Of a stretch of 64,000 bases of DNA, positions 1,192 through 25,666 are shown piece after piece (position 1 is the first letter of the stretch; each line of letters opens with the position of its first letter). A program made the position numbers and the translations under genes. This stretch comes from a virus, in IMG/VR virus record IMGVR_UViG_3300042197_002762, positions 64,001-128,000 of that record. One strand, 5' to 3'. The notes below the pieces were generated by a model. That model was not told the DNA's origin. It was given only the letters and a program-made list of their open reading frames with translations, and ran no database searches.

Positions 1192-4100
1192 ATGGCTGCT
1201 ATTACATTAGATATTGGTGGAAATACTAGGCGTTTAGACAGAGATATACAAAAGACTGTCAATAAGGTCTATAATATTAATTTAAAGACTAAGGGTGACC
1301 AACCACTTGGACGTATTACTGGACAAGTCAATGAATTTAATAAGTCGTTAGATGCTTCTAATGCTCGTGTTATTGCATTCGGTGCTAGTGCTGGTATTAT
1401 ATTTGGAGTTGAGAGAGCTTTTACTGCTTTGTTAACTTCTGTTGTAGAAGTTCAAAAATCTCTACAAGATATTAATGTTATTCTGAATGTTTCATCAAAA
1501 GAATTGCAAAAATTCGGTGGAGAATTATTCAATATTGCAAAAAATACTGGGCAAACTTTTCAAGCAGTTGCGGAAGCTGCTACAGAATTTTCTCGTCAAG
1601 GTTTGGGTTTAGAAGAAACTTTAAAAAGAACAAGTGAGGCTTTAATTCTTTCTCGTTTAAGTGGGTTGGACACCGTAAAAAGTGTTGAAGCTCTTACTGC
1701 TGCCGTAAACTCATTTGCAAGTCAAGCTGTTAGTGCCACAGAAGTCGTTAATAAGTTTGCGACCGTTGATGCTGCTTTTGCTGTTAGTTCCGCAGATCTT
1801 GCTGATGCCGTTGCGCGTGTAGGTAGTAGCGCGGCACAATCTGGGGTTTCATTAAACGAACTTATTGCGATTGTCACATCAGCACAGCAAACAACTGCTC
1901 GTGGTGGTGCGGTTATTGGTAACTCATTTAAAACAATTTTCACAAGATTACAAAGAACTAAAGTAGTAAGCTTATTAGAAAGTCTTGGAGTGGAAACGGT
2001 TGGAGCTGGAGGCCAAGTTAAGTCAACAATTCAATTATTACAAGACTTAGGCACTGTATATGATACCTTGGGAGCGCAACAACAAGCATATGTAGCTGAA
2101 CAGGTCGGTGGTGTTTTCCAGATTAACATTTTAAAAGCTGCTTTAGCTGACTTAGGTAAAGAATATTCTATTTATAATAATGCTCTTAATGTTTCCGCTA
2201 GCGCTACGGATCAAGCAGTTAGAAGAAATGAAGAATTAAATAAAACTTATGCTGCACAATTAAATGCCCTTCAAGAAAATGCAAGACAATTAGCAGCAGT
2301 TGGTGGTGAAAGATTATTTGGGCCATCCATTGATAGACTTGTTGGTGGAACAAATCAATTGTTATCTGGATTTAATGAAAGTGACGCTCAGGGGTTTGGC
2401 GTTACCCTTGGTCGGGGTATATTAGATGGTTTAGGTCAATTTATTGCTGGACCAGGTCTTGTGTTAATTGGAGGCGTTCTTCTTAAATTATTTAAAGATT
2501 TAGCCAATTTTGCTACTGGTAGCGTCAAACAACTTTTAGGATTAAATACTGCTTCTGCTCAACAACGTGATTTACAAGCAAGTATATCTCAAATTTTATC
2601 AAAAAATCCCCAATTAATAGATCTCGCCCTACAAGGGCAAAAAGGATTAAATACTGTTGCAAATCAATTGCTCACAAGTTTACAACAGCAAACCGTTGAA
2701 TTACAAAAACAAGCTGCTTTAGCTTCTCAACTTTCTAAAGCTTTTATTGGTGCAGGAGTTCGTATTAGTGGCGGAATTCCAGTCGCACCGACTCCAGGAA
2801 GACCTGGAAAAGCTGCTGGTTATATTCCTAATTTTGCTTCGCCTCAAAATAAAATAGCAGAAACTATTGGGGCTTATCAGGCTGGTTACGAACCAGGAAG
2901 AATTTTTAATAAAAGACTGTACGATGGACAGGGAGGTTCGTTTTTAGCGACAGTAAATAGTGCGGAATCTTTTGATACAGTTGTTGGCCCTAATGGGAAC
3001 AAGGGCACATTTGTTACGCCACCAAATGGTTTTGCCGCAAAAGGTTTTGTACCAAATTTTGCAAAATCAATTAAGACAGACGATTCATCAAAGATATTTG
3101 GCGCTGGACGTGTTTTTGAAAATGCGGTAGGATTAGCAGCTGGTCTTCAAAAAGAATATTTTGAAGATAATTTTATATTAGATTATGAACCAAATGTCTG
3201 GGCTGGAAAACAAGATATTAAAAAGATTTTAGGTATTAATCAGCGTACTAATTACGGAGATGCAAAATTAAGCGCTCAGGGTAACAATTTAACAAGTTAT
3301 CTTTCAAAAGTAATTCGATATGATAGTGGATTACGTGGAGTTCAAAAAGTAGGTAATATTAAAGATTTTAATCAAAAATTTGGCTTAAGAAAAAAAATTG
3401 ATATTAGTAAACGTGGCCCTAATAATATTAATTTATCACAACCGGGTGGTGGAGCTGTTATTATACCTGGAAATAAAAAAGGTGATGGATCAAAAGATCG
3501 TACAGTAAATATTAAAGCACGTTTAAGTGAATTAAAAAAAGTAAATAGTTCCATTGCAAATGTTTTTGCGAATCCAAATAATAAATATGGCATAGACCCA
3601 AAAAGTAAATCAGACCCCATCTTTTCTTTAAAAAATGTTTTGATTGATACTACAGAGGTATTAAGAAGTGGTACTTTTGGGGCACAAGGAAAAGAAGAAA
3701 GAGAAAGAAAAGCTAGAAATATTGCTTCTAGATTTACGTCAAAAAGTTTTGCTTCTGGTTTCATCCCAAATTTTGCACAAACACCAACACAATCTAATAA
3801 AGTAGTAGAACTCGGTGATACTACAACTAATCCACTTTTTAGAGGTAAGGTTTCATCTTTAATTTATCCACAGGTTTCAGAAAACAAGTCAAAAGCCCAA
3901 GGTGAAACAACATACTTAGGCAAAAAATATAGAGGGCTAGTTTCGATAGCTGGTATTAATAAAAAAGCCCTTAAAGGTGAGATACCTGATTTAGAAGCAA
4001 ATTTAGATCAGCTTTTACTCCGTGAAGCGAATGAATTTGGCCGCGCAATTGGTGGTACAGAATTTTTACAATCAGCATCAGAGCTTCCAAATATTGGCGC

Positions 4101-7100
4101 TGCTAAAGGTGCCGTTGGTGTGTCTTTTGAAGGTGGATTATTAACATTACTTAAAAGAGATGTTCAGAAAAGTGCTCAAAATGCTCGCATTGATTTTACA
4201 CAAGATCGAATAAACTCTAAATTTAAATCTCTATTTCATGGTGCTCCTGGAACTTATGAAGCAAAATATAGCCCTTCTTTAACTGGCGAAGTTTTGCAAA
4301 AAATGTTAAGAGGGGCTGGGGTTGGTGAAGTAAAGCGAGTAAAAAGTGGTCCTGGAGCAGGAGCTTCGATGAAACAGAGAGAAGCGGTTTTAGCTAGCAT
4401 TAATAAAGATGTAGCGGAAGGTAGAATTACTCAACCAAGAAGAGGAAATGCTCTTGAGGCAGAAGTAAGAAGAAGATTGCCTCTTATGTTCCCAGGTTCG
4501 GTAAAAGGCGCTGCCGCTGGTTATATTCCAAATTTTGCAGCACCACTCGTAAGAGCAGTAGACGACAAAGAATTACGAATGATGTTATCTAAATTTGGCA
4601 AAGGATTTTCTTTCCAAGGTAAATCTTCTGAACAGTCCGCCTTAGAGTTTTTTGGCGGATCTGGAACTTATATGTGGGATGCTCTTTCAAGACCAGGCGA
4701 ACAAATGAGCGACAGACAAGCTTATAAACAAAATATTGGTCGCGCAAAAAATTGGTCCACAGCTAGAAAACAAAGTTCTTGGCTGGTAAGATATAATAGA
4801 AGTAAATTAAAAGATTCCGAGCTACTTCCAGATATGGAAACTGGTGGCGCTTCTGTTTACGGATTACCTTTAAGTAAAGATCAAATTGTTTGGCCTATTA
4901 AGCAAGCTAATGGGGCTGGTAGAATTTTTGAAAAAGATATTCCAGCATTTTTAAGTGGCCAAGTAAATGATGCAATAAAACGTGAAAGAGAAGCTGGTAT
5001 TCCTAAAAATAAAATTTATTTGGCGCAAGAAAAAGCTCTTACTAAAACAAATCCTATGGGTCTTGGAGTATTTAATAAATTACAAGAGCCAAATGCCGCT
5101 ACTAGAAAAACAGCTATGCGTAGCAAGGGTTTTGCGAGTGGTTATATTCCCAATTTTGCTATTGAAGATCCGGATATGCAAGCTGCTGATTTGGGTTCAT
5201 CTATTGGAGCAGTTGTTGCGCAATTAGGATTTTTAGCTTTTGGCTTACAAGGGGCTGGAGAGCAATACAAACAATCGTTAGCAGAGTTAACAAAATCAAA
5301 TGTTAATACTGCAAAAATTAATTCCAAAAATCTTAGAGAAAGTACTTCAAGAAGACTTCTTGTAGGTAATACTGCTGCTGCGCAAGGTGGGGCCAGAATA
5401 CGACCGGATGGGTCTCGTGGTCGTGATTTTTCAAACTATACTGGGGGTAAAACGGGCAAAGAATTTGGTGATTTGAGAAGAGCGTCGAGAAGCCCACTAT
5501 CACAACAAAGAAGAGATGAGGCGGCTAGAGAACTAAGAGCAGCTAGAGCAGCAGAAAGAACAGCCGCAAGAGGAACTGGTGGTCAAAAATTTGCAGCAGC
5601 AGGTAAGGCTGGTGGATTTGGTTTGGCTTTAGCTGGCCCGATTTTAGGTGAAACAATTAAAAATGCATTTGGACAAGAAACTCCTGGCGCAAGACAGGCC
5701 GGAACTGTTGCGGGAGCAGCTGGCGAAATTGCAGGTTTTGCTGGCACAGGAGCTATATTTGGACCTGTTGGTGCGGCAGTTGGCACTGTAGTTGGCTCTT
5801 TACTGACAATACCAAAAATTGTGGGGGCATTCGCTTCCGACTTCCCAGAATTATCTAATGCGGCTAAAAAAGCTGGAGAAGAATTAACGAAATTTAGCGA
5901 TTCTGGAGCGAAATTATTAACATCATTTGAAACTTTACAAAAAGGATTGGAAGATCCTGGAACTTCACAAGAAGTTATAAATAAAGCATCGGAAGAATAT
6001 GCTAAAATTTTGTCTGGACTTTCCGCAGAAGATCAAAAACGTTTATCTGCGGCTGCAAAAACGGGAAAATTAGAAACTGAATATGCGAAAATTTTAGCAG
6101 AAAAAACTGCTGAATTACAATCTAGAGAAGCTGCTGCTAGCTTAGGTCAAGCGACTGGAGATGTAGAATCAAGGAATTTTATGCGAAATGCCGCGAGCTA
6201 TCTTAATTATTCTCCTATAGTGGGTGGAGCTAGCGCTATTTCACAATCTCTTGGTGGTCCAGGCTTACAAGATTATATAGATTATTATTTACCAAGTTTA
6301 ACTGGAGTGGGTACCGAATCTGATAAAACAAATCAAGCTGTTTTTGCACAATCATTAACGCAAGGTAAAAGTGGCGGAGATGCTCTAAAAGCTTTAGAAA
6401 AAGCTGGGGGTACTGGTGTTGTAAAACAACTAAATCAAATACAAACTGGAGACGTTGGCGCTTTAGAAGCATTACTTAATAAAGTAATTCCAGAGCAAGA
6501 GGGTAAAGCTGATATTGTCGCACAATTTATTGCACAAGCAAATAATAATGCCCAAGATTTTCAAAATGTTGTTGGTAGTCTTGGCCAAAGTTTCTTAAAA
6601 ACAATGGAAACTGCAAAAGGTGCTAAAACGGCTGCTGATGAAATGCTTGCAGCTCAAGAAGCAGAAGCTAAAAAGAAAAAAACGGCAGTAGAAGCTACCA
6701 ATAAAATTATAGAAAATTTAGAAAGAAATATAAGGGTTGCGCAATTTGCAGCAGAATCAGAAAGAGCACTCGCTCGTTCTAGAGAAAAATTCGCTAGACA
6801 AGAATTATTTGCAGATCGTTTTACTAGAAAAACGGAAACAGCTGGGGCAATTGTTGGGACAGACGCCCCATTAGCACAAGCTTTTGGGTTAAGAGAAGAA
6901 ATTGCTACTATTGCTCAATCACAAATAGAAAGTATTGAAAATATAAAATTTAGTTTTGTAGATACAATTAATTCTTCTATTAATGATGCATTTAAAGATG
7001 CAACAGGCGCCACCATTTCAGGGGCAAGGCAGGATGGAACATCTAAAGATGTAACAAAAACAAATGATCAATTATCTTCACAAGCTTTTCAACAAACTCG

Positions 7101-8742
7101 CGCATTTAAAGAAGTCCAATCTGTTTTAAATCAATATTTAAAAAGTTCTGGAACTGTCAATACAGAGGCTTTATTAGCCCAGATTGATCAAAAACTAGCT
7201 GACGCAAAAGTTAATGACGCAACAAGATTAAAAATAGAACAACAATTAAAAGAAGAATCTTCTAAAGTAAATGGCGAGATTAAACTTTTAAAACAAGAGT
7301 CCGTACAAAATTTTAAAAAATTAGCTAAGGAACAGTTACAAAGAATTCTTATTCAAAAAATTGGTCAAGCCCAGGCTTTTGGGGGTGGGATAGATGAATT
7401 TTTGAATCCACGCGAGGCGGGGGAGGGTGCTTTTGATAAGGTTACAGAATCAGTAAAAGCATTCGATCAATTCGAAGGCCAACAAGCAGATTTTCGTTTT
7501 GATTACCGGCAGGGTACAAACGATTTTAGATATCAATACGGGGCAGCCCAAAGGGCTAGACAAGAAATGGCTCCAGAATTTGGTAGAGAGGCGTTAAAGC
7601 TTATTGGAAATTTACAAAATATTACAGGATACACACCAGACCCACAAGGCAAAGCTTTTCAAGCTGGAGTTACTGGCTTAGAAGAATTTTTAAGGAGAAG
7701 GGTCACTGAGCTACAAACTCTTGCTAAAGATCCAGGTACTGGCCAATTAGAGAGAGATGAAATTAATGCAGCTTTATCAACTATTCCCGAACTAGGCGGT
7801 CTTAAAACAATAGCAACATTACAAGTAGCTAGACAAACTGGCGCATTAGATGAAACACAATACGAAGCAATTACTAAAAAATATCAGGATCCAGTTTTAC
7901 AAGCTTTAAGAGAACGTGCAATTCAAGTAGGCGGAACTGAAGGGGCAGCATTATTAGAAGAAGTAAAAAAATTAGCTAAAGACCGAATAACAACAGAAGG
8001 CGCAGAACCTACTGTCGAAGCAATAAATACAACAAATAGTATTCTTAATGATATTTTAACATCTCCAGGAATTAATGGTCAAAGATCTAATGATGTTTCA
8101 GATGTTGGGGCCATTGCTGATAAATTATTAAAAAATGCACAATCGCCTACTATCAACCCACAACTAATAGGACAAGCAACTCCCGTTACGCCTACAACAA
8201 CTACAGCGGCTGCACCAACGACTCCACCTATTAGTCAAATTCCAGCAATTATTGATTTTACACCAGTAGTTTCAGCTGTTGCGATAGGTAACTCATTCTT
8301 ATCAAGTATCGCAGATTCAATATTAGATATTAAACAAATTCAAGACATCGATAAAGATTATGGTAATTATGATACCAGATCAAGAGAAAAAGAGGCTCTC
8401 AGCAAAATACAAAGTAAAAATGAGAATTTCACAAGTAAAATTCCCGCAACAACTGGAACCGTAGCAGGTATCGGGGGTGAAGTATTAGTTCAAAGTATTA
8501 ATACATTAGTAGAAGCTTTAAGACAGCAACCAGCCCAAAATAATTCTGCACAAAGCCAAGGCGTGACACAACCAAATATTCAAACAACAACAAATGCCCC
8601 AGTTACTTTAGTTGTAAATGCTGAAAGCTCCACAGATATTGCTACTGCTGTTGGTGAAGCTGTTCAAAATGCAATCCCGACAATTATTGACAAAGTAAAA
8701 GTAGCGCTTGGTCAAAAGGTTCCACCAAAGGCAGGGGGTTAA
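1192..8742 (+). CDS. phage tail tape measure protein (TP901-like N-terminal domain) with internal cassettes
   Basis: 2516 aa; N-terminal TMP signature (LQDINVIL...FNIAKNTGQTFQAVAEAATEFSRQG...LSRLSGLD...DAAFAVSSADLADAVARVGSSA); Gly/Ala-rich hydrophobic stretches; long helical regions; lies at head of tail operon. Confidence 0.92.
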   Translation: MAAITLDIGGNTRRLDRDIQKTVNKVYNINLKTKGDQPLGRITGQVNEFNKSLDASNARVIAFGASAGIIFGVERAFTALLTSVVEVQKSLQDINVILNVSSKELQKFGGELFNIAKNTGQTFQAVAEAATEFSRQGLGLEETLKRTSEALILSRLSGLDTVKSVEALTAAVNSFASQAVSATEVVNKFATVDAAFAVSSADLADAVARVGSSAAQSGVSLNELIAIVTSAQQTTARGGAVIGNSFKTIFTRLQRTKVVSLLESLGVETVGAGGQVKSTIQLLQDLGTVYDTLGAQQQAYVAEQVGGVFQINILKAALADLGKEYSIYNNALNVSASATDQAVRRNEELNKTYAAQLNALQENARQLAAVGGERLFGPSIDRLVGGTNQLLSGFNESDAQGFGVTLGRGILDGLGQFIAGPGLVLIGGVLLKLFKDLANFATGSVKQLLGLNTASAQQRDLQASISQILSKNPQLIDLALQGQKGLNTVANQLLTSLQQQTVELQKQAALASQLSKAFIGAGVRISGGIPVAPTPGRPGKAAGYIPNFASPQNKIAETIGAYQAGYEPGRIFNKRLYDGQGGSFLATVNSAESFDTVVGPNGNKGTFVTPPNGFAAKGFVPNFAKSIKTDDSSKIFGAGRVFENAVGLAAGLQKEYFEDNFILDYEPNVWAGKQDIKKILGINQRTNYGDAKLSAQGNNLTSYLSKVIRYDSGLRGVQKVGNIKDFNQKFGLRKKIDISKRGPNNINLSQPGGGAVIIPGNKKGDGSKDRTVNIKARLSELKKVNSSIANVFANPNNKYGIDPKSKSDPIFSLKNVLIDTTEVLRSGTFGAQGKEERERKARNIASRFTSKSFASGFIPNFAQTPTQSNKVVELGDTTTNPLFRGKVSSLIYPQVSENKSKAQGETTYLGKKYRGLVSIAGINKKALKGEIPDLEANLDQLLLREANEFGRAIGGTEFLQSASELPNIGAAKGAVGVSFEGGLLTLLKRDVQKSAQNARIDFTQDRINSKFKSLFHGAPGTYEAKYSPSLTGEVLQKMLRGAGVGEVKRVKSGPGAGASMKQREAVLASINKDVAEGRITQPRRGNALEAEVRRRLPLMFPGSVKGAAAGYIPNFAAPLVRAVDDKELRMMLSKFGKGFSFQGKSSEQSALEFFGGSGTYMWDALSRPGEQMSDRQAYKQNIGRAKNWSTARKQSSWLVRYNRSKLKDSELLPDMETGGASVYGLPLSKDQIVWPIKQANGAGRIFEKDIPAFLSGQVNDAIKREREAGIPKNKIYLAQEKALTKTNPMGLGVFNKLQEPNAATRKTAMRSKGFASGYIPNFAIEDPDMQAADLGSSIGAVVAQLGFLAFGLQGAGEQYKQSLAELTKSNVNTAKINSKNLRESTSRRLLVGNTAAAQGGARIRPDGSRGRDFSNYTGGKTGKEFGDLRRASRSPLSQQRRDEAARELRAARAAERTAARGTGGQKFAAAGKAGGFGLALAGPILGETIKNAFGQETPGARQAGTVAGAAGEIAGFAGTGAIFGPVGAAVGTVVGSLLTIPKIVGAFASDFPELSNAAKKAGEELTKFSDSGAKLLTSFETLQKGLEDPGTSQEVINKASEEYAKILSGLSAEDQKRLSAAAKTGKLETEYAKILAEKTAELQSREAAASLGQATGDVESRNFMRNAASYLNYSPIVGGASAISQSLGGPGLQDYIDYYLPSLTGVGTESDKTNQAVFAQSLTQGKSGGDALKALEKAGGTGVVKQLNQIQTGDVGALEALLNKVIPEQEGKADIVAQFIAQANNNAQDFQNVVGSLGQSFLKTMETAKGAKTAADEMLAAQEAEAKKKKTAVEATNKIIENLERNIRVAQFAAESERALARSREKFARQELFADRFTRKTETAGAIVGTDAPLAQAFGLREEIATIAQSQIESIENIKFSFVDTINSSINDAFKDATGATISGARQDGTSKDVTKTNDQLSSQAFQQTRAFKEVQSVLNQYLKSSGTVNTEALLAQIDQKLADAKVNDATRLKIEQQLKEESSKVNGEIKLLKQESVQNFKKLAKEQLQRILIQKIGQAQAFGGGIDEFLNPREAGEGAFDKVTESVKAFDQFEGQQADFRFDYRQGTNDFRYQYGAAQRARQEMAPEFGREALKLIGNLQNITGYTPDPQGKAFQAGVTGLEEFLRRRVTELQTLAKDPGTGQLERDEINAALSTIPELGGLKTIATLQVARQTGALDETQYEAITKKYQDPVLQALRERAIQVGGTEGAALLEEVKKLAKDRITTEGAEPTVEAINTTNSILNDILTSPGINGQRSNDVSDVGAIADKLLKNAQSPTINPQLIGQATPVTPTTTTAAAPTTPPISQIPAIIDFTPVVSAVAIGNSFLSSIADSILDIKQIQDIDKDYGNYDTRSREKEALSKIQSKNENFTSKIPATTGTVAGIGGEVLVQSINTLVEALRQQPAQNNSAQSQGVTQPNIQTTTNAPVTLVVNAESSTDIATAVGEAVQNAIPTIIDKVKVALGQKVPPKAGG
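2812..5160 (+). repeat. five dispersed G[YF][IV]PNFA peptide repeats inside the TMP
   Basis: GYIPNFA 2818-2838, GFVPNFA 3043-3063, GFIPNFA 3757-3777, GYIPNFA 4519-4539, GYIPNFA 5140-5160, all in frame. Confidence 0.95.
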
Positions 8743-8747
8743 TTTAA

Positions 8748-10385
8748 ATGGCAAATTTATTATTTGATAATGTTGAAGTATTAGGTTACGATCATCAAAA
8801 TAATTTTTTTGGTGAAAGATCTTTATTTTATTCATCTTTAAGAACAATATCAATCCGTGGTTATATACTAGATTTGGTAAATAGTAGCGGTGTAAAAGGC
8901 GTCTTTAATAATGCGAAAGACATTATTAAATTAACTCAAGATTTCCAAGAAATAATAATTAATGGCGAAAACTTCGGCGTAGGTAAAGTAAAATCTTTTT
9001 CTGTTGATTCTGGAAATTGGGTTCGTTACACTCAATACGAAGCAACGATTGAAGTTTTATTAGAAGTCCCAATTGCAGATTTGGATTCCAAAGAATTTAC
9101 TGGAATAAATGTCGGCAATAAACAATTAAATTTAATTAAAAGTTTTTCGGAAAGTTTTTCTTTAAACTTTGACACGCAAAATAAAGTTTTAGGTGGAGAA
9201 CATTCTATTGATATAGAATATGATGCAGATAATAAAAACATTGATATTATAAGATTTGCCCAATCTTTAGCTACTGAATTATTAAAAACAATACCATCTA
9301 ATTCTAATATTGCAGAAGGCAATTATATTACTAGAAATAATTACAAAGTTTTAAATAGTGAAAACTATAATACTGTTACTGGCAAATGTGGTTTTAGAAG
9401 AACTTTTTCATATAGTACTTTAAATGCTAATAAGAATTACTCTTTTATTAGAACACACTCCGTTGAAATAAATGAAGATGGTATTGCGACTGCCAGCGAA
9501 AACTGTTCAATAAAAGCAGAATTTGATGTACCATCTTTATACGAAAATGCTTTAATTGGTTATAACGAACAAATCGCTGGGGTTTATTCTAGATGCAATA
9601 CGGTATTCCAAAACTATAAAACAAAATTTAATATTATCACAAATTTAAACCAGCAGTTTATTAGCAAATCTGTTCAAGTTAATAAATTCAATGGCACTAT
9701 TAATTTTACTATAAATTTTGATAACGATCCTAAAAAAATTAATTCTTCTTATATTTGGGAATATGTAAGTAATTTAGACAGAAGCGAAAATGGAGTATGG
9801 ACTACTTCCGAAAATGGTTCTGTTAAAGGAAATGGTAAAGTTGGTTCTATTGATAAATACAATAATGCTAATACTGGGTGGAATACAGCTAAGGGCGGTA
9901 TATTTGGTAGAGTAACATCTTTTTATAACAATGAAGCTACAAATAAAATTGGGGGAACTTTGAAAGAAATTAGTAAAACAATTAATCGTAATAAATACGA
10001 AGGTTTTATTAATTATAATTATACATATACAGACGATCCAACAATTAAAGATGGTTCTGATTCAGGTATTAAAAAAGTGGATATTGAAAAAACGGACACG
10101 GGACTTTTGCCAATCACAAAAGATTTTATTATACCAAATAGAACTTTTGCGTTAAATCAAAATAGAGATTTAAAACAACAGGGTACATATACTGTAAAAG
10201 TAAGTTTAGAAATTGGATGTACTTCTACTAATGTTCTTAATAGTTGGAATTATTTTACAAAAGCACAACAATATGCTGGGGGTAAACCAAATTTAGGTAA
10301 TGATGAATACTTAGAAGCAATTAATTATTCATCCAACGAAACAGATAGAACAATATCATACGAGGCAACTTATAAATATTCATAA
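8748..10385 (+). CDS. putative tail/baseplate structural protein
   Basis: 545 aa, beta-strand rich with internal repeats, immediately after TMP; paralogous pattern with next ORF. Confidence 0.6.
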   Translation: MANLLFDNVEVLGYDHQNNFFGERSLFYSSLRTISIRGYILDLVNSSGVKGVFNNAKDIIKLTQDFQEIIINGENFGVGKVKSFSVDSGNWVRYTQYEATIEVLLEVPIADLDSKEFTGINVGNKQLNLIKSFSESFSLNFDTQNKVLGGEHSIDIEYDADNKNIDIIRFAQSLATELLKTIPSNSNIAEGNYITRNNYKVLNSENYNTVTGKCGFRRTFSYSTLNANKNYSFIRTHSVEINEDGIATASENCSIKAEFDVPSLYENALIGYNEQIAGVYSRCNTVFQNYKTKFNIITNLNQQFISKSVQVNKFNGTINFTINFDNDPKKINSSYIWEYVSNLDRSENGVWTTSENGSVKGNGKVGSIDKYNNANTGWNTAKGGIFGRVTSFYNNEATNKIGGTLKEISKTINRNKYEGFINYNYTYTDDPTIKDGSDSGIKKVDIEKTDTGLLPITKDFIIPNRTFALNQNRDLKQQGTYTVKVSLEIGCTSTNVLNSWNYFTKAQQYAGGKPNLGNDEYLEAINYSSNETDRTISYEATYKYS

Positions 10386-10386
10386 T

Positions 10387-11994
10387 ATGAGTAATCAAGT
10401 AAAAATTCTATATAATGGTAAGGATGCTTTTAGTGGTATTTCAACAGTCCCATTTGTTTCGATTTCAAATGATTATATTGATTTTGGTACAAAATGGAAT
10501 CAAGTAACTAACATTACCTTAGAGGGGCAGTTAACTGGTAAATTTTTAGGACAAGCTTCTTATGGTTTACTTGCGGATGCGGCTAGAAAATTACATGAAA
10601 ATTTCAATCAAAACTATAAAACTTTATTAATTACAGAAAATGGTTCTGGATTATATACAGGACTTAATACAATTATTAATTCTATTAATATCGAACAATC
10701 TTCTTGGTATGGATTATTACCCTATTCAATTGATTTAACCGTATATGATTCTGGACTTTTTAAAGATTATTATGGAGTTGTGGAACCAGAAGAAACCTTT
10801 TCTTTTGACGAGGAAGACGGGGATATACTAAATCTTGTTCATTCAATTTCGGCAAAAGGTATTGTAGCTAAAAATAAAAATGCAATTGAAAATGCAAAAG
10901 AATGGGTTTTATCAAAAACAGGTAATTTTACCGGTATTTCGCCTATATTAATAAAAAATTTCAGAGCGGCGAGTAACAAACCATTTTTACTATATTCGAC
11001 ACAAGAGGTGGTAGATAGATTTAACGGTACGTATTCTTGGGAAGGAACATATAAAAAATCTACAAATTTAGAAAGTCCTAATAATGCTATTTTGAATTAT
11101 ACTGTAGATTTAAATTCTGGAATTGAAGACGGGATTGTTACGGCAAACATAAATGGCGGTTTAGAAGGTAATAATATCGAAGTTTTAAGAACTGAATACA
11201 ATAATTTAGATTTATATAACATATGCAGTGAAATTTGTAATCGCGTTTTTAAAGAGCCAATTTCTAACAGGCCAATATCACAATCAGTCGAAGAAACAGC
11301 AGAAGAAAACAGATTAGAGTTTAGTTCTACATATAATAATGATTACTCAGATCAATTAGTAAATAATTATACGGTTGATATTAATGAAGACTCTTTAAAG
11401 TGTATAAGAACCGTTACATTAAATTCTACAATATCATGTAAGTATGGTGATCTAGCCACAAAATGGCAAAAAGTAAATGATTTTTATAAAACTAAATTTT
11501 TTCCATATTCTCTAGCTTCAGAAGAATTTTTTTCAGAATTTGGTGCTGCGAATTTAAATCCCGTCCCATTAACAGAATCAATTAGTTTTGATAGTTTTAA
11601 TGCCCAAATTACTTATAACGCACAATATTCAGATAAGCCCCTAATTTTTAGCGCTGATATTTTAAATGTAAGTTCTAATGTTACATTTAATCCATCAATA
11701 TTTATTCATGTTCCTAATACATCAGCTTTTACAGCTAGAGAACACAATATTCAAAATTTAAGGTGTGCTAATAGATCAAAAGTTCAAATTTCTGTAACAG
11801 CTACGGCTAGAATGAACAAAAATATATCATCGGCGGAAAGCGCAGCTATTAGTGAAATTAATAGAATTAAATCAAACTATACAAATGGTCGTGCAAATCT
11901 ATTATTGGAAGACAGAAGCTTTTCAAGAAATAATGATATTAAGACTGTAACAATAAATGAAACATGGTCTTTTGATGGATCCCTAATCTCATAA
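10387..11994 (+). CDS. putative tail/baseplate structural protein, paralog of previous ORF
   Basis: 535 aa; colinear motifs with 8748..10385; TAA-T-ATG coupling. Confidence 0.6.
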   Translation: MSNQVKILYNGKDAFSGISTVPFVSISNDYIDFGTKWNQVTNITLEGQLTGKFLGQASYGLLADAARKLHENFNQNYKTLLITENGSGLYTGLNTIINSINIEQSSWYGLLPYSIDLTVYDSGLFKDYYGVVEPEETFSFDEEDGDILNLVHSISAKGIVAKNKNAIENAKEWVLSKTGNFTGISPILIKNFRAASNKPFLLYSTQEVVDRFNGTYSWEGTYKKSTNLESPNNAILNYTVDLNSGIEDGIVTANINGGLEGNNIEVLRTEYNNLDLYNICSEICNRVFKEPISNRPISQSVEETAEENRLEFSSTYNNDYSDQLVNNYTVDINEDSLKCIRTVTLNSTISCKYGDLATKWQKVNDFYKTKFFPYSLASEEFFSEFGAANLNPVPLTESISFDSFNAQITYNAQYSDKPLIFSADILNVSSNVTFNPSIFIHVPNTSAFTAREHNIQNLRCANRSKVQISVTATARMNKNISSAESAAISEINRIKSNYTNGRANLLLEDRSFSRNNDIKTVTINETWSFDGSLIS

Positions 11995-11995
11995 T

Positions 11996-14900
11996 ATGGT
12001 AAATATAATCTCAGGTATGAATTTTTTGGTAGAAGCCTTGAATATCGATATTCAAGATATTCCTGCTGCATTTTCATTTAGAGCAAATCCTACATTTAAT
12101 ACTAATATCATATATCCTGACCCTTGGGCATCTGGGTCATCTTCTGGTATCTTAAATACAGTTGGCGGAAATGGTTTTTTTACTTATTCTGGGACAGGTA
12201 ATTTTAATGGAAACAATTATTTTAATTTAAATAAAAATTATTCTTTTAATAATTCTACAATATTTTTATCATATGAAAAGTTAAGATCTGGTAATGAAAT
12301 CTTATTATCTTCAATAACAGGAAATTCTTTTAATAACTCTTCTGGTTTTAATCTAGGGATTAATGACGCAAATAAATTATATTTAAAATATTGGAATAAT
12401 GTTGAAGGGCCATTTACTTTTACTTATAGTGGAATTTTATCAGATAAAAATATTATTGTAATTAATAGAAGTGATTCAATTATTACATTAGGACATTTTA
12501 ATAATAATACTTTTGAATTTTCATCACAAGAATTTGAAATTTTTCAAAATAATTTTATTAATAGTTCTAATTTATTTATTGGTGGTACGCCAAACCGTCC
12601 AAATTGGGATTTAAATAATCCATCTAATTTTAGTGGTTATATGGACAGATTGTATATATTTAATAATATACCATTTGTTTATGCTAATGTTTTATCTCGT
12701 GGACTGTTTTCTGAGCCAACTGGTTTCGCGGGGGAATTAGAAGAATACTGTTACACAACAGGATTTTTATCTGGATCTGGTTTTTCTTATTCTACAGTTA
12801 CTGGAGTTTTAGTTTCGGGTTTTCAAAGTGGAATTACTGGAATTACTGGCTATCAAGAAGTTATTTCAGGCAGTTCTTTTACTGGTATTACTGGGTATAG
12901 TGGAAAATATTTAGGTTCATATATTGATAATTGTGGAAATAATATTGACATAATAGAACAAGTTCCGCTTTCTGGTATTATATCAAATGAAATTACAATA
13001 ACGGTTCCTTTAACTGGAATTACTTTTGTAACTGGTTTTGTTGATGTCCCACTTATTGGTGTCGAAACTGGTATCCAAAATGTTTTTGTAACAGGACTTA
13101 TTTGTGATTCGTATTTCAATAATATTGGAGATGTTTTATATGCATATGATGAACCTTATTTATCATCTTTATCTTATAAAGAAATAAGCTTATTGACCAC
13201 TGTAAACCCAAATAAAATTGAGCCGACTGGTAATGATATTATTGAGATCTATGCCGAAAAATATCAACCTAAAACTTTAGAGTATAATAAAAATTTAGCT
13301 TACGATACTTTAAATGAAAATTATTTTTACATTGACCGAGAATTTAAACCTAATGAAGTTCTTATGTTCGGTAATGGTCAAGCTCTTATTGATAATGGAT
13401 ATGAACTTATTCCAAGCGGATATGAAATAATAAGAAGTCCTAATTTTGACTATTTTATTACAGGGACAACTGTAGAAACAAATAAATTTTTTGGAGCAAA
13501 AGATTATTTATTTTATGATTTTTTTAGTGGTAGATCTAGTTTTTACCCAAGATTGAGTAATATTTTTGGGGAAGTTTTTTATCAATCTAGTAATAGTGGT
13601 GTAGATGCTTTTGTTTTTAAAAATGGTCAAAAATTAATTAGTGGTATTGATTATTCTGTAGATAGATTAAATTCAGCGCAATTAATATATGGTTCTGGCA
13701 ATCGTGCAGAATTAGGTTGGAATTTAAATTTAAATGAAGATGGTGATTTGCTAATGGTATCTGATCGTGGCTCCCGTACTATTGCTCAAAATCTTTATAT
13801 ATATAATAAAGACTCTAATTCACAATGGAATTCATCTCAGACATTAACAGGTTTAATGAAGATTGTATGGACTGGGCCGAACTCAGTTATAAGTAGAGAT
13901 TTTGGATCCTATTTAAGTAAAAATGGTAAGGTATTGGTTGTTTTAAATTCTAAGGAAATAGATATTTTTACCGGTTCTAAAAATTCTAACTGGAGTTTAT
14001 GTAAAAATTTTAAATATTCTGCTAATTTTCCTTTGGGTTCTGTTTTTCATACACAGTCTGTCCAAATAACAGACGTTATTACCCCACTTAACGAAGTTAC
14101 CATGAATTACGATGGATCTTTAATTTTAGTTAACGCTCCAAGATTAAGTGGATATTCAGAGAATTCAAGGATTTTAATATTAACAGGTTCTTTAGAAAAT
14201 GGAGATTGGGTTCAAACTAGTTTTTTAGATACTTCATTATTATATATCAGGCCCTATTCTTTGAGACAGCTTAATTTAAATAATGATGGCACAATTTTAG
14301 GGATCGCTGAAAGATTTAGTGCTTGGCCAGGACCATTTGTTGGGCATGTTAGGATTTTAACTGGTTTTATTAATAATTGGAATTTATGTTCAATAATTAG
14401 TGGATCTGGTATTGGGGGCTCGTTAGCCATGTCTAATGACGCAAATATTATATGTACTAGCAACCCATATAGTGGAAATAATATTTCTCAGTATGGAGCG
14501 GGTGCAATTTATATATATACAGGATCAGTTTCTAATGGTTGGAATTTGAAACAAACTATTACGGGAAGTCATGATAATCGTGGAGATGCGATTGGTCGCA
14601 AAATAAAAATTTCAAACGACGGAAATACAATTTTATTCAATGCTGGAATAAGTAATAATACTTCGCCTACAAAAAATAGAATAATAAAATATAAAGGTAA
14701 TAAAAATATGGGGTGGTTACCAGATAATATTTATTATCCAAATAATTTTCAACAAGATAGTGAATTTATAAATTACGGTCAAAATATTGAATTAAATGGT
14801 TTGGGGAATGCTTTTATGACTACTGCTCCTACAACTACTATTTATCCAAATGAGAGTGTAGGGGCTCTTTATACATACGGAGAAGGAATGAATTTGTATT

Positions 14901-15178
14901 TTTTAAATGAAGAGTTTTCTAATCAATTAAATTATTTTATGGTTAAAGAAGTCGATCATTATAACAATTACGCATTAAATTCAGGAATTTCCGGTACTTT
15001 ACCGTTTAATAAACCATTTAATCACGGATGCTCTCAAGTTTATTATAATGGCATTAAACAAAAAATTGGAAATAATTATGTGGAAAATAGTCGATATGAT
15101 CTAATTTCTGGAACTTTTAACCAACCAAGTGAATTTCAAGAAGTAATTTATAATAATACTGACGATTTTTTTGTGTAA
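11996..15178 (+). CDS. tail fibre/adhesin-like protein: LamG-like N-terminus plus FG-GAP-like beta-propeller
   Basis: FNGNNYFNL...LFIGG...FSGYMDRLYIFN (concanavalin/LamG pattern); six or more blades such as LAMSNDANIICTSNPY..GAGAIYIY and IKISNDGNTILFNA. Confidence 0.7.
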   Translation: MVNIISGMNFLVEALNIDIQDIPAAFSFRANPTFNTNIIYPDPWASGSSSGILNTVGGNGFFTYSGTGNFNGNNYFNLNKNYSFNNSTIFLSYEKLRSGNEILLSSITGNSFNNSSGFNLGINDANKLYLKYWNNVEGPFTFTYSGILSDKNIIVINRSDSIITLGHFNNNTFEFSSQEFEIFQNNFINSSNLFIGGTPNRPNWDLNNPSNFSGYMDRLYIFNNIPFVYANVLSRGLFSEPTGFAGELEEYCYTTGFLSGSGFSYSTVTGVLVSGFQSGITGITGYQEVISGSSFTGITGYSGKYLGSYIDNCGNNIDIIEQVPLSGIISNEITITVPLTGITFVTGFVDVPLIGVETGIQNVFVTGLICDSYFNNIGDVLYAYDEPYLSSLSYKEISLLTTVNPNKIEPTGNDIIEIYAEKYQPKTLEYNKNLAYDTLNENYFYIDREFKPNEVLMFGNGQALIDNGYELIPSGYEIIRSPNFDYFITGTTVETNKFFGAKDYLFYDFFSGRSSFYPRLSNIFGEVFYQSSNSGVDAFVFKNGQKLISGIDYSVDRLNSAQLIYGSGNRAELGWNLNLNEDGDLLMVSDRGSRTIAQNLYIYNKDSNSQWNSSQTLTGLMKIVWTGPNSVISRDFGSYLSKNGKVLVVLNSKEIDIFTGSKNSNWSLCKNFKYSANFPLGSVFHTQSVQITDVITPLNEVTMNYDGSLILVNAPRLSGYSENSRILILTGSLENGDWVQTSFLDTSLLYIRPYSLRQLNLNNDGTILGIAERFSAWPGPFVGHVRILTGFINNWNLCSIISGSGIGGSLAMSNDANIICTSNPYSGNNISQYGAGAIYIYTGSVSNGWNLKQTITGSHDNRGDAIGRKIKISNDGNTILFNAGISNNTSPTKNRIIKYKGNKNMGWLPDNIYYPNNFQQDSEFINYGQNIELNGLGNAFMTTAPTTTIYPNESVGALYTYGEGMNLYFLNEEFSNQLNYFMVKEVDHYNNYALNSGISGTLPFNKPFNHGCSQVYYNGIKQKIGNNYVENSRYDLISGTFNQPSEFQEVIYNNTDDFFV
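15173..15178 (+). promoter_or_regulatory. GTGTAA putative late-promoter motif
   Basis: 29 nt upstream of ATG 15208, AAGGA runs between; overlaps previous stop codon. Confidence 0.45.
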
Positions 15179-15207
15179 ATTAAATAGGAATATAAAGGAA
15201 AAAGGAT

Positions 15208-17613
15208 ATGGCAATTAAAAATGTACCAACAATTTCTGGACCAAATTATGGAGGAGTAATATATGGTCTTAATCTTAGTATAGGTTATTCAGCAGAACCA
15301 TCTAAATTAACAATTGATATTGTTAATGAAAATGGGGTTTATGCTACACCATCATTAAATTCACAAACGCAAGTAAGATTTGGAAATTTTACTTTTAATG
15401 GGACCGTATGGTCTTATACTTTAAAAGAAAGCGCCGGAGAAAAAACTTTGCAAGTTACTCTAATAGATAATAGTATTATTTTAGATAGATATTATGTTTT
15501 ATTATGGAAACGTGGATTACTTGGTCTAAACGGAACGTTACAAAATAAAAATAAAACTTTTGATTTTAGTGATGAGAGTATTTTAGTACCACAAAGAAAT
15601 AATAAATTATCTGGTTTTGGGTATACGCAATTTATTGAAAGAAGATTGGGCCGAGTGACAGTTCCTTCAAAATCTTATACATTAGGTAGTAGAAGAGTTG
15701 GAAATGTTATTTTAGTTGGGCATGAAAAATTTGCAAATTCTGTTTGTGACATCCCAGATACTTATTATACATTTAATGATTTAAGAGGTCAAATTCCAGT
15801 AAACATGTCTTCTGCCCCAAGTAATGATACTTGGAAAGCCACTCACGAAGGAACTTTAAGAGAAGTGTTAAGCAGTTGGTGTTCAGATTTAGGTTTCGAT
15901 TATTATTGGGATTTTTCTTCAAATACTCTTAGGTTTTTCGATGTATCCGTTGGTATTTCTAATGTTCCTGATATTTCTGGTCCTAATATTATTTCTAAAG
16001 AAAAATCGGTTTCCATGCAGGGAACATTTAGGCAATATGGTATTGGATATACGGCAATGCCGCGATCTGCGGTTAAAGCCTTAAGTGCTTCTAAATCTAG
16101 GGTAGTATTATATTCTTTATCTCCATATCCAATAAGTTACTTTGTAAATAAAATTGGCGCTCCACAGGCTATTAATGCAGATAAAGGTAAATGGGGTGGT
16201 AGAAGAAGTCAAGATGATTTTGTTCATGCAGCGTTCTTAGGTTTCGTTTCAAGAAGTTTGAGAGATTTATATTGTTTTCGAAATGAACACTGGGAAGCTC
16301 TTGGCTATAAAGTTGATAGTGGATTAACAACAAATAAACCAAAAATCATAAGTGCTCTTAAAAAATTTGGTTTTCAAGATATGATTTCAGATTTAGAAGC
16401 ATTTGATGCTAAGGATTTGCCTAATTATGATTTTAATTTTATTAACAGGGACCCCACTATTGCAGATAAGTGGCATGAAATAGAACAAAAACTATTACAA
16501 TATCATGGTAAATATTATAGGGCTTCAGATTCTTCTGGTTCTTTCTTTTATTGTAATTCTAATTATACAATAGAGGTTGAAATATCTGTTGACCCAGAAG
16601 GCCAAGTGCAAGAGCAAGGTAGTGAAAATTTCGCTGGCCGAAAAATCATTGATAGGGGTGGAACAATGAGTCATGATGAAACAAGCGCTCAAGAAGCCAT
16701 TGGTTATGAAAATTTAACTAATGAAATTCAAAATTGCGCTCCAATACATATTGATTTAAAAGAATCTGGTATTTTAGACTCTTTAATAACTGCAAAAATT
16801 CTTTCAGGGAGTAATTCTAAAAAAATAAATACTTTAGTTATTTTTCCAAATAGTGAAAAATTTGTAAAAAATAAAATAGGTTTTAGATCTTCAACAAGTA
16901 GGGGTTTAAATCCTCTTGAACAAACATTTTATGATCAAAAAAATGCCAATATACAATCTGGTAAAAAAAATTGTCCCCAATATGACGAAAGTTTAGAAAA
17001 AGGTTCATGCAAAGCCGCTGAAGAAATTGCTAGAGATACCGCAATTAAAAATGCCGGAGGTACAACTAACGATACAGATAACCCTGATGATTATATTAGC
17101 GGATTAATAACAAAAACAGCTAAGTCTTGTAGCATATCTTTAAAAGGTGGAACTGTAAGAATTTTCGCTCCATCAGACGGAAGTTTACAAGTTGTTTGTA
17201 GATATAATATTAATATTAATAAACTTACTACCGTTGGAACTGAACAATTTTTATGGTCAGCTGGTTCCCCTGGTGGCGCGAATGATGTCGCTGAAATTCG
17301 TATTAATAATGAAAATATTACGGATCCAGACGAAGATTCTTTTCAATCAAGAAGACCTGGAAATTTAATTAAACCAGCGGATGCTGTTTGTGCAACACCC
17401 CAGCAAGAAATTAAATATGTTTTTGCTGGTGAGCCAGAAGGCGTAGCGTTAAGTCCAACTAATGGGTTATCAAATTTAGATATTAGCTTGTCGTCAGATG
17501 GCTTTACAACAACAGCTACTTTTGCTACAAAACCGCCAAAACTATCAAAAGCCAATAATACAGTAAGATATGTCCAATCACAATTTAACCGCGCTTCTTA
17601 TAACGCTTCATAA
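15208..17613 (+). CDS. putative tail hub/baseplate protein
   Basis: 801 aa; N-terminal LSIGYSAEPSKLTIDIV...FNGTVWSY...LQVTLID resembles hub-type beta-barrels; tail operon context. Confidence 0.5.
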   Translation: MAIKNVPTISGPNYGGVIYGLNLSIGYSAEPSKLTIDIVNENGVYATPSLNSQTQVRFGNFTFNGTVWSYTLKESAGEKTLQVTLIDNSIILDRYYVLLWKRGLLGLNGTLQNKNKTFDFSDESILVPQRNNKLSGFGYTQFIERRLGRVTVPSKSYTLGSRRVGNVILVGHEKFANSVCDIPDTYYTFNDLRGQIPVNMSSAPSNDTWKATHEGTLREVLSSWCSDLGFDYYWDFSSNTLRFFDVSVGISNVPDISGPNIISKEKSVSMQGTFRQYGIGYTAMPRSAVKALSASKSRVVLYSLSPYPISYFVNKIGAPQAINADKGKWGGRRSQDDFVHAAFLGFVSRSLRDLYCFRNEHWEALGYKVDSGLTTNKPKIISALKKFGFQDMISDLEAFDAKDLPNYDFNFINRDPTIADKWHEIEQKLLQYHGKYYRASDSSGSFFYCNSNYTIEVEISVDPEGQVQEQGSENFAGRKIIDRGGTMSHDETSAQEAIGYENLTNEIQNCAPIHIDLKESGILDSLITAKILSGSNSKKINTLVIFPNSEKFVKNKIGFRSSTSRGLNPLEQTFYDQKNANIQSGKKNCPQYDESLEKGSCKAAEEIARDTAIKNAGGTTNDTDNPDDYISGLITKTAKSCSISLKGGTVRIFAPSDGSLQVVCRYNININKLTTVGTEQFLWSAGSPGGANDVAEIRINNENITDPDEDSFQSRRPGNLIKPADAVCATPQQEIKYVFAGEPEGVALSPTNGLSNLDISLSSDGFTTTATFATKPPKLSKANNTVRYVQSQFNRASYNAS

Positions 17614-17615
17614 GT

Positions 17616-20600
17616 ATGGTTATTACATCTGGGATACAGTATAGAAATTTTGCAGCACAAAATGAATTTTCTTTTTCTTTTAGTGCTATAAATTCTATTT
17701 CTTCTGGTATCTCAGAAATTGGTTTTTCTGGGGGTGAAAATGTATTACCAATTTTTTCTTTTAAGAGCGGAAATATTTTTGATTTTAACAATAAATATGT
17801 ATGGTCTTACAATCCAAGAGAGGTAATTAATTTTTCTGGTAATATTGGTTCTGGTTACATTAATTACTTTATAAATAATAATCCAATATGTTTATTTTCT
17901 CCTAAATCTAATAATTTATATTATGATTATTTTTATTTAAAAACAACTGGCTCTGAAATTGATTATGATTTTTATATTCAAGGGGACCGACCAAATTATA
18001 ATGTTATCTTTCCTAAAAGTGGTTTTTTTGGGCAGCGACTAACGGGATTTATAAAAAATTTTGAAACTATACCAGAGAAGTCTTTTAAAATTTTTAGTGG
18101 CACTTTATTTAATGAGAATACAGATTATGAAATACAAAATTTGCCGCTATTTGTAATTTCTGGTAACCAGTCTGGACAAATAATTTTAAAACCGGAATTT
18201 GACGACAATATTGTAATTTCGGAGGTAACACCATCTCAAGCAACCCTATTTTTTAATACAAATTTTGGTAATGTTCAAAATACTATATCTTTTGACTTAA
18301 TTCCTGGTCCTATTTATTTTGTTGAATTATTTACAGGATATACTGGAGGAACTGGATTAATTGACAATTTTACTTTTGGTCAATATTATAATTATGAATT
18401 AAGAACAATATCTCCAGACCCGTTAGAAGTAACGGTTTTAATAAAAAATATTTCTGGGCATACTGGACAATTAATATCTGGAGAATTTGCTGCTAGTGGT
18501 TTTGCCAGCGGTGATATATCTGGTTTTGTTTATGGGTTTGATTATATTACTGGCGTTTTGACGGGAACTGGAATTTCTCTGTTTGAAACTGATTATTATG
18601 GACAATTTCCAACAGGGAAAATTTCAAGTAATTATAGAGAATTACAATATGCTACTGGAACACTAAATTATACATATAGGCTTCCGTTATTAGGAGCGAG
18701 CGGAACTGGTAATTCACCAGAAGGAACCGTAATTACAGCCACCGGATTTTTAAATTCGCCATTAACTGGTTTTATATATGGATATGGTATTTTTTCCGAA
18801 CAAAGAAATATCAGTTTGACGGGTTTTTATTTTGATAGCATAAATATAAAAACAGGATTACAAAGTTTAACTGGATCTGGATTTTATACTGGAACTTATT
18901 TTTTAGACTATAGAAAATTGTTATGGCGGTCTAACAATATTACGGGTACAAATTTTACTGGATCTGGAAATAAAATTGTAGATATCACGGGATTTTCTTT
19001 TGGGTCAATGTTATCCAATAATTCTGGTTCAATTAGTTTTGGCAATATAATAGCTAACCAGCAAACTGGTACGGTATTAAAAGAAATTATTAATCAAAAT
19101 CCAGGGTTATTTATTAATAGTGGTAGTGGATTTTCTACAGAAAATAATTCACTTTCAGAAAGAGCTTTTTTAGGTGATCAATATTTTTACTTAACTGGAC
19201 AAACTGGAGATATTGGAATCTTTTTTAGATTTTACGATCCATCATCAAAAGGTAAAATAACTTATTATTCTTTTGAGCTAGACTTTAATACTTTAAAATA
19301 TCCATACAATTTTGATTTACAATTATCAGAAAATAGAAATGGACCATGGACGACAATTGATTCCCGTACCGGAGATGGTTTGTTTTTAAGAGATGAGCCA
19401 TTAACTTTTTATGAATACCCAAGAGAAATTATTCTAAAATGTAATAATCATAACCAAACAATTAATAATAATGCGACTTATAACTATGCGCGTATTGAAA
19501 TTAAATCTGGTGGTTTTTGGCCACATGCTTTTACTGGCCAAAGATCTAGTAGTGGTATTGGTTTTAGAAAAATTGAACTGTATACTGGCACAAATGTTAA
19601 TATCAATAATTTAGAATCATTTTCTACTTATTCAGTAGCACCGAATTTAACTGGATATAATAAACCTTCTGGCGGAATTTTGAATAATAATTCTTTTTCT
19701 GGGCAAGTAATATATAGTGATGATTCTGTATCTTATCCAGCTTGGTATGCTTTCAATGAGAATAAAAATATTTATCCATACGCTGAAATATCCGGAGATA
19801 TTAATAATGATATATACTTAGGTTATTCTGTAGCTAATAGATTTTTTGATTTTACTGGGTTTAACATTGAATTTGAAGCGGGTTTTATTCCAACAGGTGT
19901 TGTTCTTCAGTTTTCTAGAGATGGAAATAATTATAGCACTATCTATCAAAATTATAATAATACTGGAAATCTGAATTTAAATTTTGATATTATTACCGGA
20001 TGTAAGGATTTAAAATTTACATTTAATAAAAATTTATCTTCAAGCTCAAGCTCTTCATTTAATTGCGTAACTCCGCCTAATTATATTGATACTAATAATA
20101 TTTGTTATCAAAATGCTATTAATAGCGATCCATTTTGCTGTGAGGTTAGTTGGGATGCGGAATGTGACAATGAATATTTTACTTGTGCCGGATCGTCTTC
20201 TAGTAGTAGTAGTAGTAGTAGCAGTTCTAGTTTATCATCTTTCTTATTTAATTCTAATTTATGGATAGACCCAGACGGTGGCAATATCTTTTTAGAACCA
20301 AATCAAAATTCGTCGTCAAGTTCTACTACAAATAGTTCGTCGAGCAGTTCGTCGTCGAGTAGTTCCTCGTCGAGTAGTTCCTCGTCGAGCAGTTCCTCGT
20401 CGAGCAGTTCCTCGTCGAGCAGTTCGTCGTCGAGTAACTCTTCGCCAAGTAGTTCGTCGTCAAGCAGTTCGTCGTCGAGCAGTTCGTCGTCGAGCAGTTC
20501 GTCGTCGAGCAGTTCGTCGTCGAGCAGTTCGTCGTCGAGCAGTTCGTCGTCGAGCAGTTCGTCGTCGAGTAGTTCCTCGTCGAGCAGTTCCTCGTCGAGC

Positions 20601-20912: not shown

Positions 20913-20948
20913 AATGAATTTAATAATTTATATAAAATTACTTTTTAA

Positions 20949-20954
20949 GTGTAA
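20949..20954 (+). promoter_or_regulatory. GTGTAA putative late-promoter motif
   Basis: Intergenic, 23 nt before ATG 20978, AGGA/AAGG between. Confidence 0.5.
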
Positions 20955-20977
20955 CATATATAGGAAAAAGGTTAAAT

Positions 20978-24025: not shown

Positions 24026-24027
24026 TC

Positions 24028-25083: not shown

Positions 25084-25088
25084 AATAT

Positions 25089-25664: not shown

Positions 25665-25666
25665 TT

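Follow-up and report, generated by a model that had tools for sequence, protein, structure and literature searches.

A conserved nuclease-like module in a family of giant tape measure proteins of uncultured long-tailed phages

Introduction

Tape measure proteins (TMPs) are usually seen as rulers or channel formers that contain, at most, a cell-wall hydrolase. Whether such a protein can also carry a nuclease is the question raised by a stretch of 64,000 nucleotides (the window), which comprises bases 64001-128000 of the 178,478-bp complete virus record IMGVR_UViG_3300042197_002762 from IMG/VR. An initial annotation had placed two paralogous domains of the PD-(D/E)xK restriction endonuclease fold inside the TMP encoded in this window and regarded them as virion-delivered nucleases for attack on host nucleic acid or exclusion of competing elements. 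Results of the present analysis indicate that the two domains share a core with the appearance of an active site, that this core is a standard part of a family of giant TMPs, and that its best single explanation, although one as apt to fail as to hold, is a highly divergent and possibly circularly permuted metal-dependent phosphodiesterase of PD-(D/E)xK type.

Results

Tape measure gene and linker-delimited cassettes

The open reading frame (ORF) at 1192-8742 encodes a TMP, designated P0001. The phage minor tail or TP901-type TMP domain, PF10145, is recognized at amino acids (aa) 116-307 (E 1.6e-23), and similarity to nine PHROG TMP families extends over the first ~650 residues (best E 2.4e-51). 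A word-indexed search with P0001 aa 540-1330 returned 254 homologous giant TMPs, which range in length from 1.4 to 3.7 thousand residues and are nearly all unnamed metagenomic sequences. The N-terminal TP901-type domain of P0001 is followed by an array of linker-separated modules and then by a C-terminal hydrophobic and helical region. Within the array, the motif G[YF][IV]PNFA occurs five times between 2818 and 5160 (aa 543, 618, 856, 1110 and 1317) and bounds four cassettes (aa 550-617, 625-855, 863-1109 and 1117-1316); no paper mentioning the IPNFA linker motif was found in the literature. The features that concern cassettes 2 and 3 are as follows.

1192..8742, plus strand: TMP, P0001, 2516 aa (PF10145, PHROG TMP families and 254 giant homologues)
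3043..3063, plus strand: linker motif 2, GFVPNFA, aa 618-624; upstream boundary of cassette 2
3064..3756, plus strand: cassette 2, aa 625-855, accessory paralogue (between linker motifs; clustering; AlphaFold2 model)
3100..3318, plus strand: conserved core of cassette 2, aa 637-709, with G639, F642, E643, D664, D690-x-K692 and K706
3757..3777, plus strand: linker motif 3, GFIPNFA, aa 856-862; separates cassettes 2 and 3
3778..4518, plus strand: cassette 3, aa 863-1109, primary module type of the TMP family (family of 101 cassettes; AlphaFold2 model)
4096..4311, plus strand: conserved core of cassette 3, aa 969-1040, with G976, F979, E980, D1001, E1023-x-K1025 and K1037
4519..4539, plus strand: linker motif 4, GYIPNFA, aa 1110-1116; downstream boundary of cassette 3

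The two segments singled out by the initial annotation (3064-3756 and 3778-4518) thus lie inside the TMP and exactly between the linkers at aa 618, 856 and 1110. The acidic and lysine positions that it named were also correct, nucleotides 3118, 3181 and 3259-3267 encoding E643, D664 and D690-A-K692, and nucleotides 4129, 4192 and 4258-4266 encoding E980, D1001 and E1023-A-K1025. A minus-strand ORF at 3372-3764 falls within the TMP gene and was not taken as a gene.

Family counts were made on the 120 listed of the 254 TMPs. The linker motif was near-invariant and present in 3-12 copies in each of the 120, and splitting these proteins at the linker yielded 545 cassettes, which fall into 53 sequence families. 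Cassette 3 belongs to the largest family of ~230-aa cassettes (101 members) and cassette 2 to a family of 20. Cassettes 1 (68 aa, 2839-3042) and 4 (200 aa, 4540-5139) cluster in a single family of short, ~69-aa cassettes, which is the commonest in these TMPs (150 members) and gave no match in a Pfam search. The usual order of the array among IMG/VR relatives was short cassette, core-bearing cassette, short cassette.

Kinship of cassettes 2 and 3

A direct BLASTP comparison of cassettes 2 and 3 gave nothing (E = 6), and an alignment of this pair by eye is not significant by itself; family relatives were therefore collected for comparison of profiles. Alignment by hhalign of a profile of 20 cassette-2 relatives with one of 95 cassette-3 relatives covered 68 columns at a probability of 67-91% and E values from 1e-6 to 5e-5. 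The aligned blocks were GAGRVFENAV/GAVGVSFEGGL, ILDY/RIDF, YGDAK/YEAK and SYLSKVIR/EVLQKMLR, i.e., the same four that had been proposed from inspection of the two sequences. The same core occurs in three further cassette families (families 3, 18 and 21), whereas 17-18 other families outside this group gave E values of at least 0.015 against both profiles. In addition, an iterated hidden Markov model (HMM) seeded with the cassette-3 core gathered 4, 12, 19 and then all 20 of the 20 cassette-2 relatives, and drew in no unrelated family except for about ten short GRSF-type cassettes that are without the motif. As judged from these profile alignments and from HMM recruitment, cassettes 2 and 3 are true, ancient paralogues that share a core of ~70 residues, over which they are ~19-21% identical, and the paralogy first claimed from two sequences is borne out by the families to which they belong.

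The GRSF-type cassettes are ~130 aa in length and carry the motif GRSFxIDALKxGDW (P0090_1610_1741, L012:14153-14539 and about eight others) but not the E/D/(D/E)xK pattern; they are either degenerate relatives of the core or false recruits of the HMM.

Conserved residues of the core

The shared core of ~70 aa has the pattern G-x-x-F-[E/D] in a helix, D, [D/E]-x-K in a strand and K in a further helix. Among 196 distinct cores, G and F were each conserved in 99%, the acidic residue of the helix in 95% (E in 89%, D in 6%), D in 93% and the second K in 95%, and the full pattern G..F[E/D]...D...[D/E]xK...K was kept in 185, of which 125 contained DxK and 60 ExK. The median spacing was 20 residues from the helix acidic residue to D and 22 from D to the strand acidic residue, and the two lysines were most often 14 or 12 residues apart. 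Every conserved residue is retained in both copies in the window, where the core residues of cassette 2 are invariant or near-invariant in alignment A2 (as placed by hhalign and HMM alignments) and those of cassette 3, likewise placed by the HMM alignment, are invariant columns of alignments A1 and A3. Thus, the residues picked out by the initial annotation are the conserved ones, and the catalytic signature of PD-(D/E)xK enzymes (helix acidic residue, Asp and (D/E)xK) is found at the level of sequence in 185 of the 196 cores.

Apart from these residues, the cassettes are only 15-25% identical. A few invariant charged residues on so strongly diverged a background look like an active site, and the conservation pattern supports E...D...(D/E)xK as the selected feature of the module. 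The same pattern bears on the view that the module serves the TMP structurally or in assembly, e.g., by docking the tail chaperone, tube or hub, with the charged residues forming salt bridges. Its occurrence solely inside TMPs and its fixed position in the array would suit such a role, but a small set of invariant polar residues in otherwise diverged sequence is typical of catalysis, and we regard a purely structural role as highly improbable, also for reasons of module arrangement given below.

Distribution of the module

A core-bearing cassette was present in 119 of the 120 TMPs, a set biased toward the module because it was retrieved with this very region as query; 100 of these TMPs contained one such cassette and 19 contained two. 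A second sample was therefore of interest that consisted of IMG/VR contigs fetched by means of the N-terminal TMP domain and the linker motif and restricted to frames of at least 1500 aa. In this sample, the module was present in 75 of 76 TMP reading frames and in exactly one copy in 74. The cassette-2 type was found in 20 of the 120 TMPs, never alone, and stood upstream of a cassette-3-type module in all 19 two-module TMPs, so that the TMP of the window represents the less common, duplicated state. Thus, the module is a near-universal core component of this TMP family rather than optional cargo.

Outside TMPs the module was not encountered. Run exhaustively against 1.84 billion representatives, phmmer gave 29 matches, all to TMPs or TMP fragments, and nothing was obtained from tblastn of aa 540-1330 against INPHARED phages or from single-sequence scans of IMG/VR.

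These counts weaken the notion, present in the initial annotation, of a cargo akin to that of polymorphic toxins, for a module that is near-universal and usually single-copy behaves as a core component and not as a shuffled toxin tip; being obligatory, it more probably has a role in every infection, e.g., in attacking nucleic acid on entry or in handling the genome end, than that of a variable payload. They also bring up the idea of a nuclease-derived DNA-end binding or "pilot" domain, which would hold the leading genome end in the tail and escort or protect it on entry. One obligatory copy per TMP suggests delivery of the phage's own genome and not optional warfare, the 178,478-bp genome has defined ends, being flanked by direct terminal repeats, and injected end-binding proteins such as T4 gp2 and Mu N are known from other phages. 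However, mere binding would not require near-complete conservation of all four catalytic-type residues at 15-20% identity, and a pilot domain is considered unlikely.

Predicted structure of the two cassettes

AlphaFold2 models were built with family alignments, one per cassette, and were confident for cassette 3 (model mf3c6849dc989; predicted local distance difference test (pLDDT) 85.6, predicted template modeling score (pTM) 0.69) and moderate for cassette 2 (model m47ec99fd4814; pLDDT 70.4, pTM 0.75). The core elements occur in the same order in both, i.e., a long helix with G..FE, a segment with the Asp (a beta-bridge in cassette 3 versus coil in cassette 2), a short helix, a four-residue strand with (D/E)xK and a helix with the second Lys. 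Four extra strands with helices precede the core in cassette 3 and come after it in cassette 2, the order of the former being four N-terminal strands and a helix, core and helical hairpin, and that of the latter core and beta-rich half. The opposite placement of the beta-rich halves in these models suggests a circular permutation; comparison of the halves by hhalign was not significant (E 0.074 over 13 columns). A duplicable module with flanking halves arranged differently in its two types is hard to fit to one docking geometry, which counts against the structural element considered above, whereas failure to recognize the fold, described next, would favor it.

Structural searches gave their only nuclease-like signal with cassette 2. 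VIA-align matched this model, weakly and over the whole cassette, to only ten PDB chains, of which five are nucleases that we take to belong to the PD-(D/E)xK fold class (chain, protein and VIA-align value):

6hz4_M, McrC, 2.6
2vld_B, NucS, C-terminal domain, 2.3
9ix4_A, DdmD, C-terminal domain, 2.3
1bam_A, BamHI, 2.1
2okf_B, XisH, 2.0

Foldseek, which had been put forward as a check of both segments, found no PDB match for either model and, with cassette 3, nothing in BFVD. For cassette 3, the VIA-align match list was filled by the C-terminal helical hairpin and the ESM Atlas gave unnamed viral clusters only; the Atlas gave no usable match for cassette 2.

The PD-(D/E)xK reading thus stands on the motif, on its secondary-structure setting and on the enrichment of nucleases among weak structural matches, and several results weigh against it. 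The model of cassette 3, the more confident of the two, matched no nuclease by Foldseek or VIA-align. Neither model has the strand that canonically separates the first helix from the Asp, and both have a helix where the chain runs from the Asp to the strand with (D/E)xK. No match for the cassettes was found in Pfam, PHROG, PADLOC or NCBIfam, and comparison by hhalign of the core profiles with Mrr_cat (alignment from 30 Bacteroidota genomes) and UPF0102 (from 25 Pseudomonadota genomes) gave E values of 0.2-0.5, local pairing being confined to the G..FE helix. The power of this last test is low, since Mrr_cat and UPF0102 found each other merely at a probability of 30% (E 6e-4) and neither found the PDDEXK_1 protein encoded at 48199-49221 of the window, against which the core profiles likewise gave no signal in a comparison of equally low power. 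Finally, a free-standing homologue of 109-485 aa was not among the matches listed from a profile search, which is weak evidence. Thus, the motif named in the original proposal and its secondary-structure setting fit the PD-(D/E)xK layout, while the better model and the profile comparisons supplied no link to known nucleases.

Other searches were likewise negative. Alignment A3, with all 34 members, had no match in Pfam, PHROG, PADLOC or NCBIfam; phmmer and hmmsearch of PDB sequences gave nothing for aa 540-1330 and, for A3, only spurious GTVFE lectin repeats. McrC was too infrequent in the sampled genomes for a profile to be built.

Comparison with known systems

In common with members of the PD-(D/E)xK superfamily (NucS/RecB-type, McrC, Hjc and Mrr), the module carries Glu in a helix, then Asp, then (D/E)xK in a strand and, ~12-14 positions further on, a polar residue in the next helix, and its G-x-x-[F]-E helix start resembles that of Hjc, Mrr and UPF0102 in short local hhalign matches that are not significant. 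It differs from them in the missing strand and extra helix noted above, in having no detectable kinship by sequence or profile and in being known from TMPs alone. A search of the literature found no paper on a nuclease within a TMP.

Enzymatic inserts that are known from TMPs are peptidoglycan hydrolases, as in mycobacteriophage TM4, T5 pb2 and phiIPLA35 (PMC6116005). These resemble the present module in being enzyme-like globular parts of a TMP that are presumably expelled on infection, and they raise the prospect that it is a new virion-associated cell-wall hydrolase, i.e., a glycosidase with conserved carboxylates that opens peptidoglycan locally during tail penetration. Hydrolases are the only TMP enzymatic domains established by experiment (PMC6116005), a near-universal single copy accords with an essential role in penetration, the TMP and the ten neighboring tail ORFs show no other recognizable lysin, and the cassette-3 model was not recognized as a nuclease. 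Against this, the module resembles no peptidoglycan hydrolase family, and no such domain was found by Pfam, PHROG or fold searches of the cassettes and TMP; none of the searches, whether of sequence or of fold, matched a lysozyme, transglycosylase or amidase. For its conserved residues a phosphodiesterase is the better fit, glycosidases do not usually have two invariant lysines, and the Glu lies in mid-helix and not at a helix end. Moreover, nucleases were the sole fold class enriched among the structural matches, and the cassette types found alongside in relatives are cytoplasmic enzymes. A lysin is therefore regarded as improbable.

The accompanying cassette types are informative in other respects. 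Those of related TMPs (L051:14618-15148, L079:13109-14368 and L015:13001-13510) included a GNAT acetyltransferase (PF00583) and a cytidylyltransferase-associated domain (PF16581), with scores of 29.8 and 34.2 bits against Pfam cut-offs of 20.7 and 26.7, respectively, as well as weak matches to P-loop/STAND NTPases.

GNAT and nucleotidyltransferase-like cassettes use acetyl-CoA or nucleoside triphosphates, so that the array probably works, and most plausibly functions, in the host cytoplasm; that cargo-like enzymes share the array also speaks against the structural element. In the TMP of the window itself, the nuclease-like modules are the only interpretable ones.

Polyvalent proteins of phages and conjugative elements, which are thought to be injected with DNA (Iyer et al. 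2017, PMC5512222; PMC7824862), likewise carry several enzyme domains on one large polypeptide, as do the TMPs with their 53 cassette families among 120 proteins, and GNAT-type domains are common to polyvalent proteins (PMC7824862) and to cassettes of related TMPs. In contrast with polyvalent proteins, the carrier here is a TMP, the nuclease-like module is obligatory and not variable, and a fixed G[FY][IV]PNFA linker takes the place of accompanying processing metallopeptidases, no peptidase family having been found in P0001 by Pfam or PHROG. The polyvalent-protein literature names no tape measure as carrier, and the word "tape" is absent from PMC5512222. Nuclease tips of polymorphic toxins (Tox-REase families) share with the module a PD-(D/E)xK-type motif in a delivered, modular protein, but the TMP module is internal rather than C-terminal and near-universal rather than polymorphic; an immunity gene was not seen, although no search aimed at one was made.

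Neighboring genes and origin of related contigs

Ten large ORFs beside the TMP gene (130-1152 and 8748-27403; 191-1098 aa), which are presumed to be tail and baseplate genes, matched no significant Pfam or PHROG family, the sole Pfam match, to PARP, being far under threshold (20.5 bits versus a cut-off of 100). No match to Phage_sheath_1 was found anywhere in the 178-kb genome. Further along the window is a replication block with a DnaB helicase (45448-46920), a primase (46917-47813), a bona fide PDDEXK_1 nuclease of RecB/Cas4 type (48199-49221, E 1.4e-19) and a Pol III alpha subunit (50619-53153), and with a class II ribonucleotide reductase (34882-36861), a GDP-mannose 4,6-dehydratase (37249-38334) and a RecA-like protein (38877-39971).

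Metagenome-assembled genomes that hold related TMP contigs (L082-L092) are labeled Flavobacteriales, Proteobacteria, Neomarinimicrobiota, Halobacteriovorax and Cellvibrionales. Since these labels span several unrelated phyla, they were read as mis-binning, probably by composition, and dropped as evidence of host. The labels point to aquatic habitats but to no reliable host.

Discussion

For the module we infer fold class, catalysis, substrate and cytoplasmic delivery along the following lines. As a PD-(D/E)xK-type phosphodiesterase, it would use its helix Glu (E643/E980), its Asp (D664/D1001) and its strand motif (D/E)xK (D690-K692/E1023-K1025) to bind Mg2+ and activate water, and contact with the phosphate would fall to the helix Lys (K706/K1037). 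Its position within the TMP would imply delivery by the virion, in that the module, being part of the TMP, would be kept in the lumen of the tail and expelled before the genome. In the infected cell its target would be nucleic acid, be it DNA or RNA of the host or of competitors or the ends of the incoming genome. A difficulty for this route is that the lumen of a tail tube should be too narrow for three or more copies of a folded 25-kDa domain, and the module would therefore need to refold after ejection.

Taken in full, the proposal is of a new, fold-divergent and perhaps circularly permuted PD-(D/E)xK nuclease family that is exclusive to TMPs. It would be an obligatory component throughout a large clade of aquatic, long-tailed and as yet uncultured phages, and would be fired into the host through the tail lumen within a linker-delimited effector array. 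This we advance tentatively, as somewhat less probable than not. If true, the TMP would double as a polyvalent effector carrier with a nuclease as its one constant payload, and the PD-(D/E)xK superfamily would gain a family that is invisible to current sequence and fold searches. If the module is catalytically intact, the first protein into the cell would bring nucleic-acid chemistry with it, a picture reinforced by the GNAT and nucleotidyltransferase-like cassettes of relatives, and this would bear on host shut-off, on the defeat of resident defense elements before phage gene expression and on the handling of the leading genome end.

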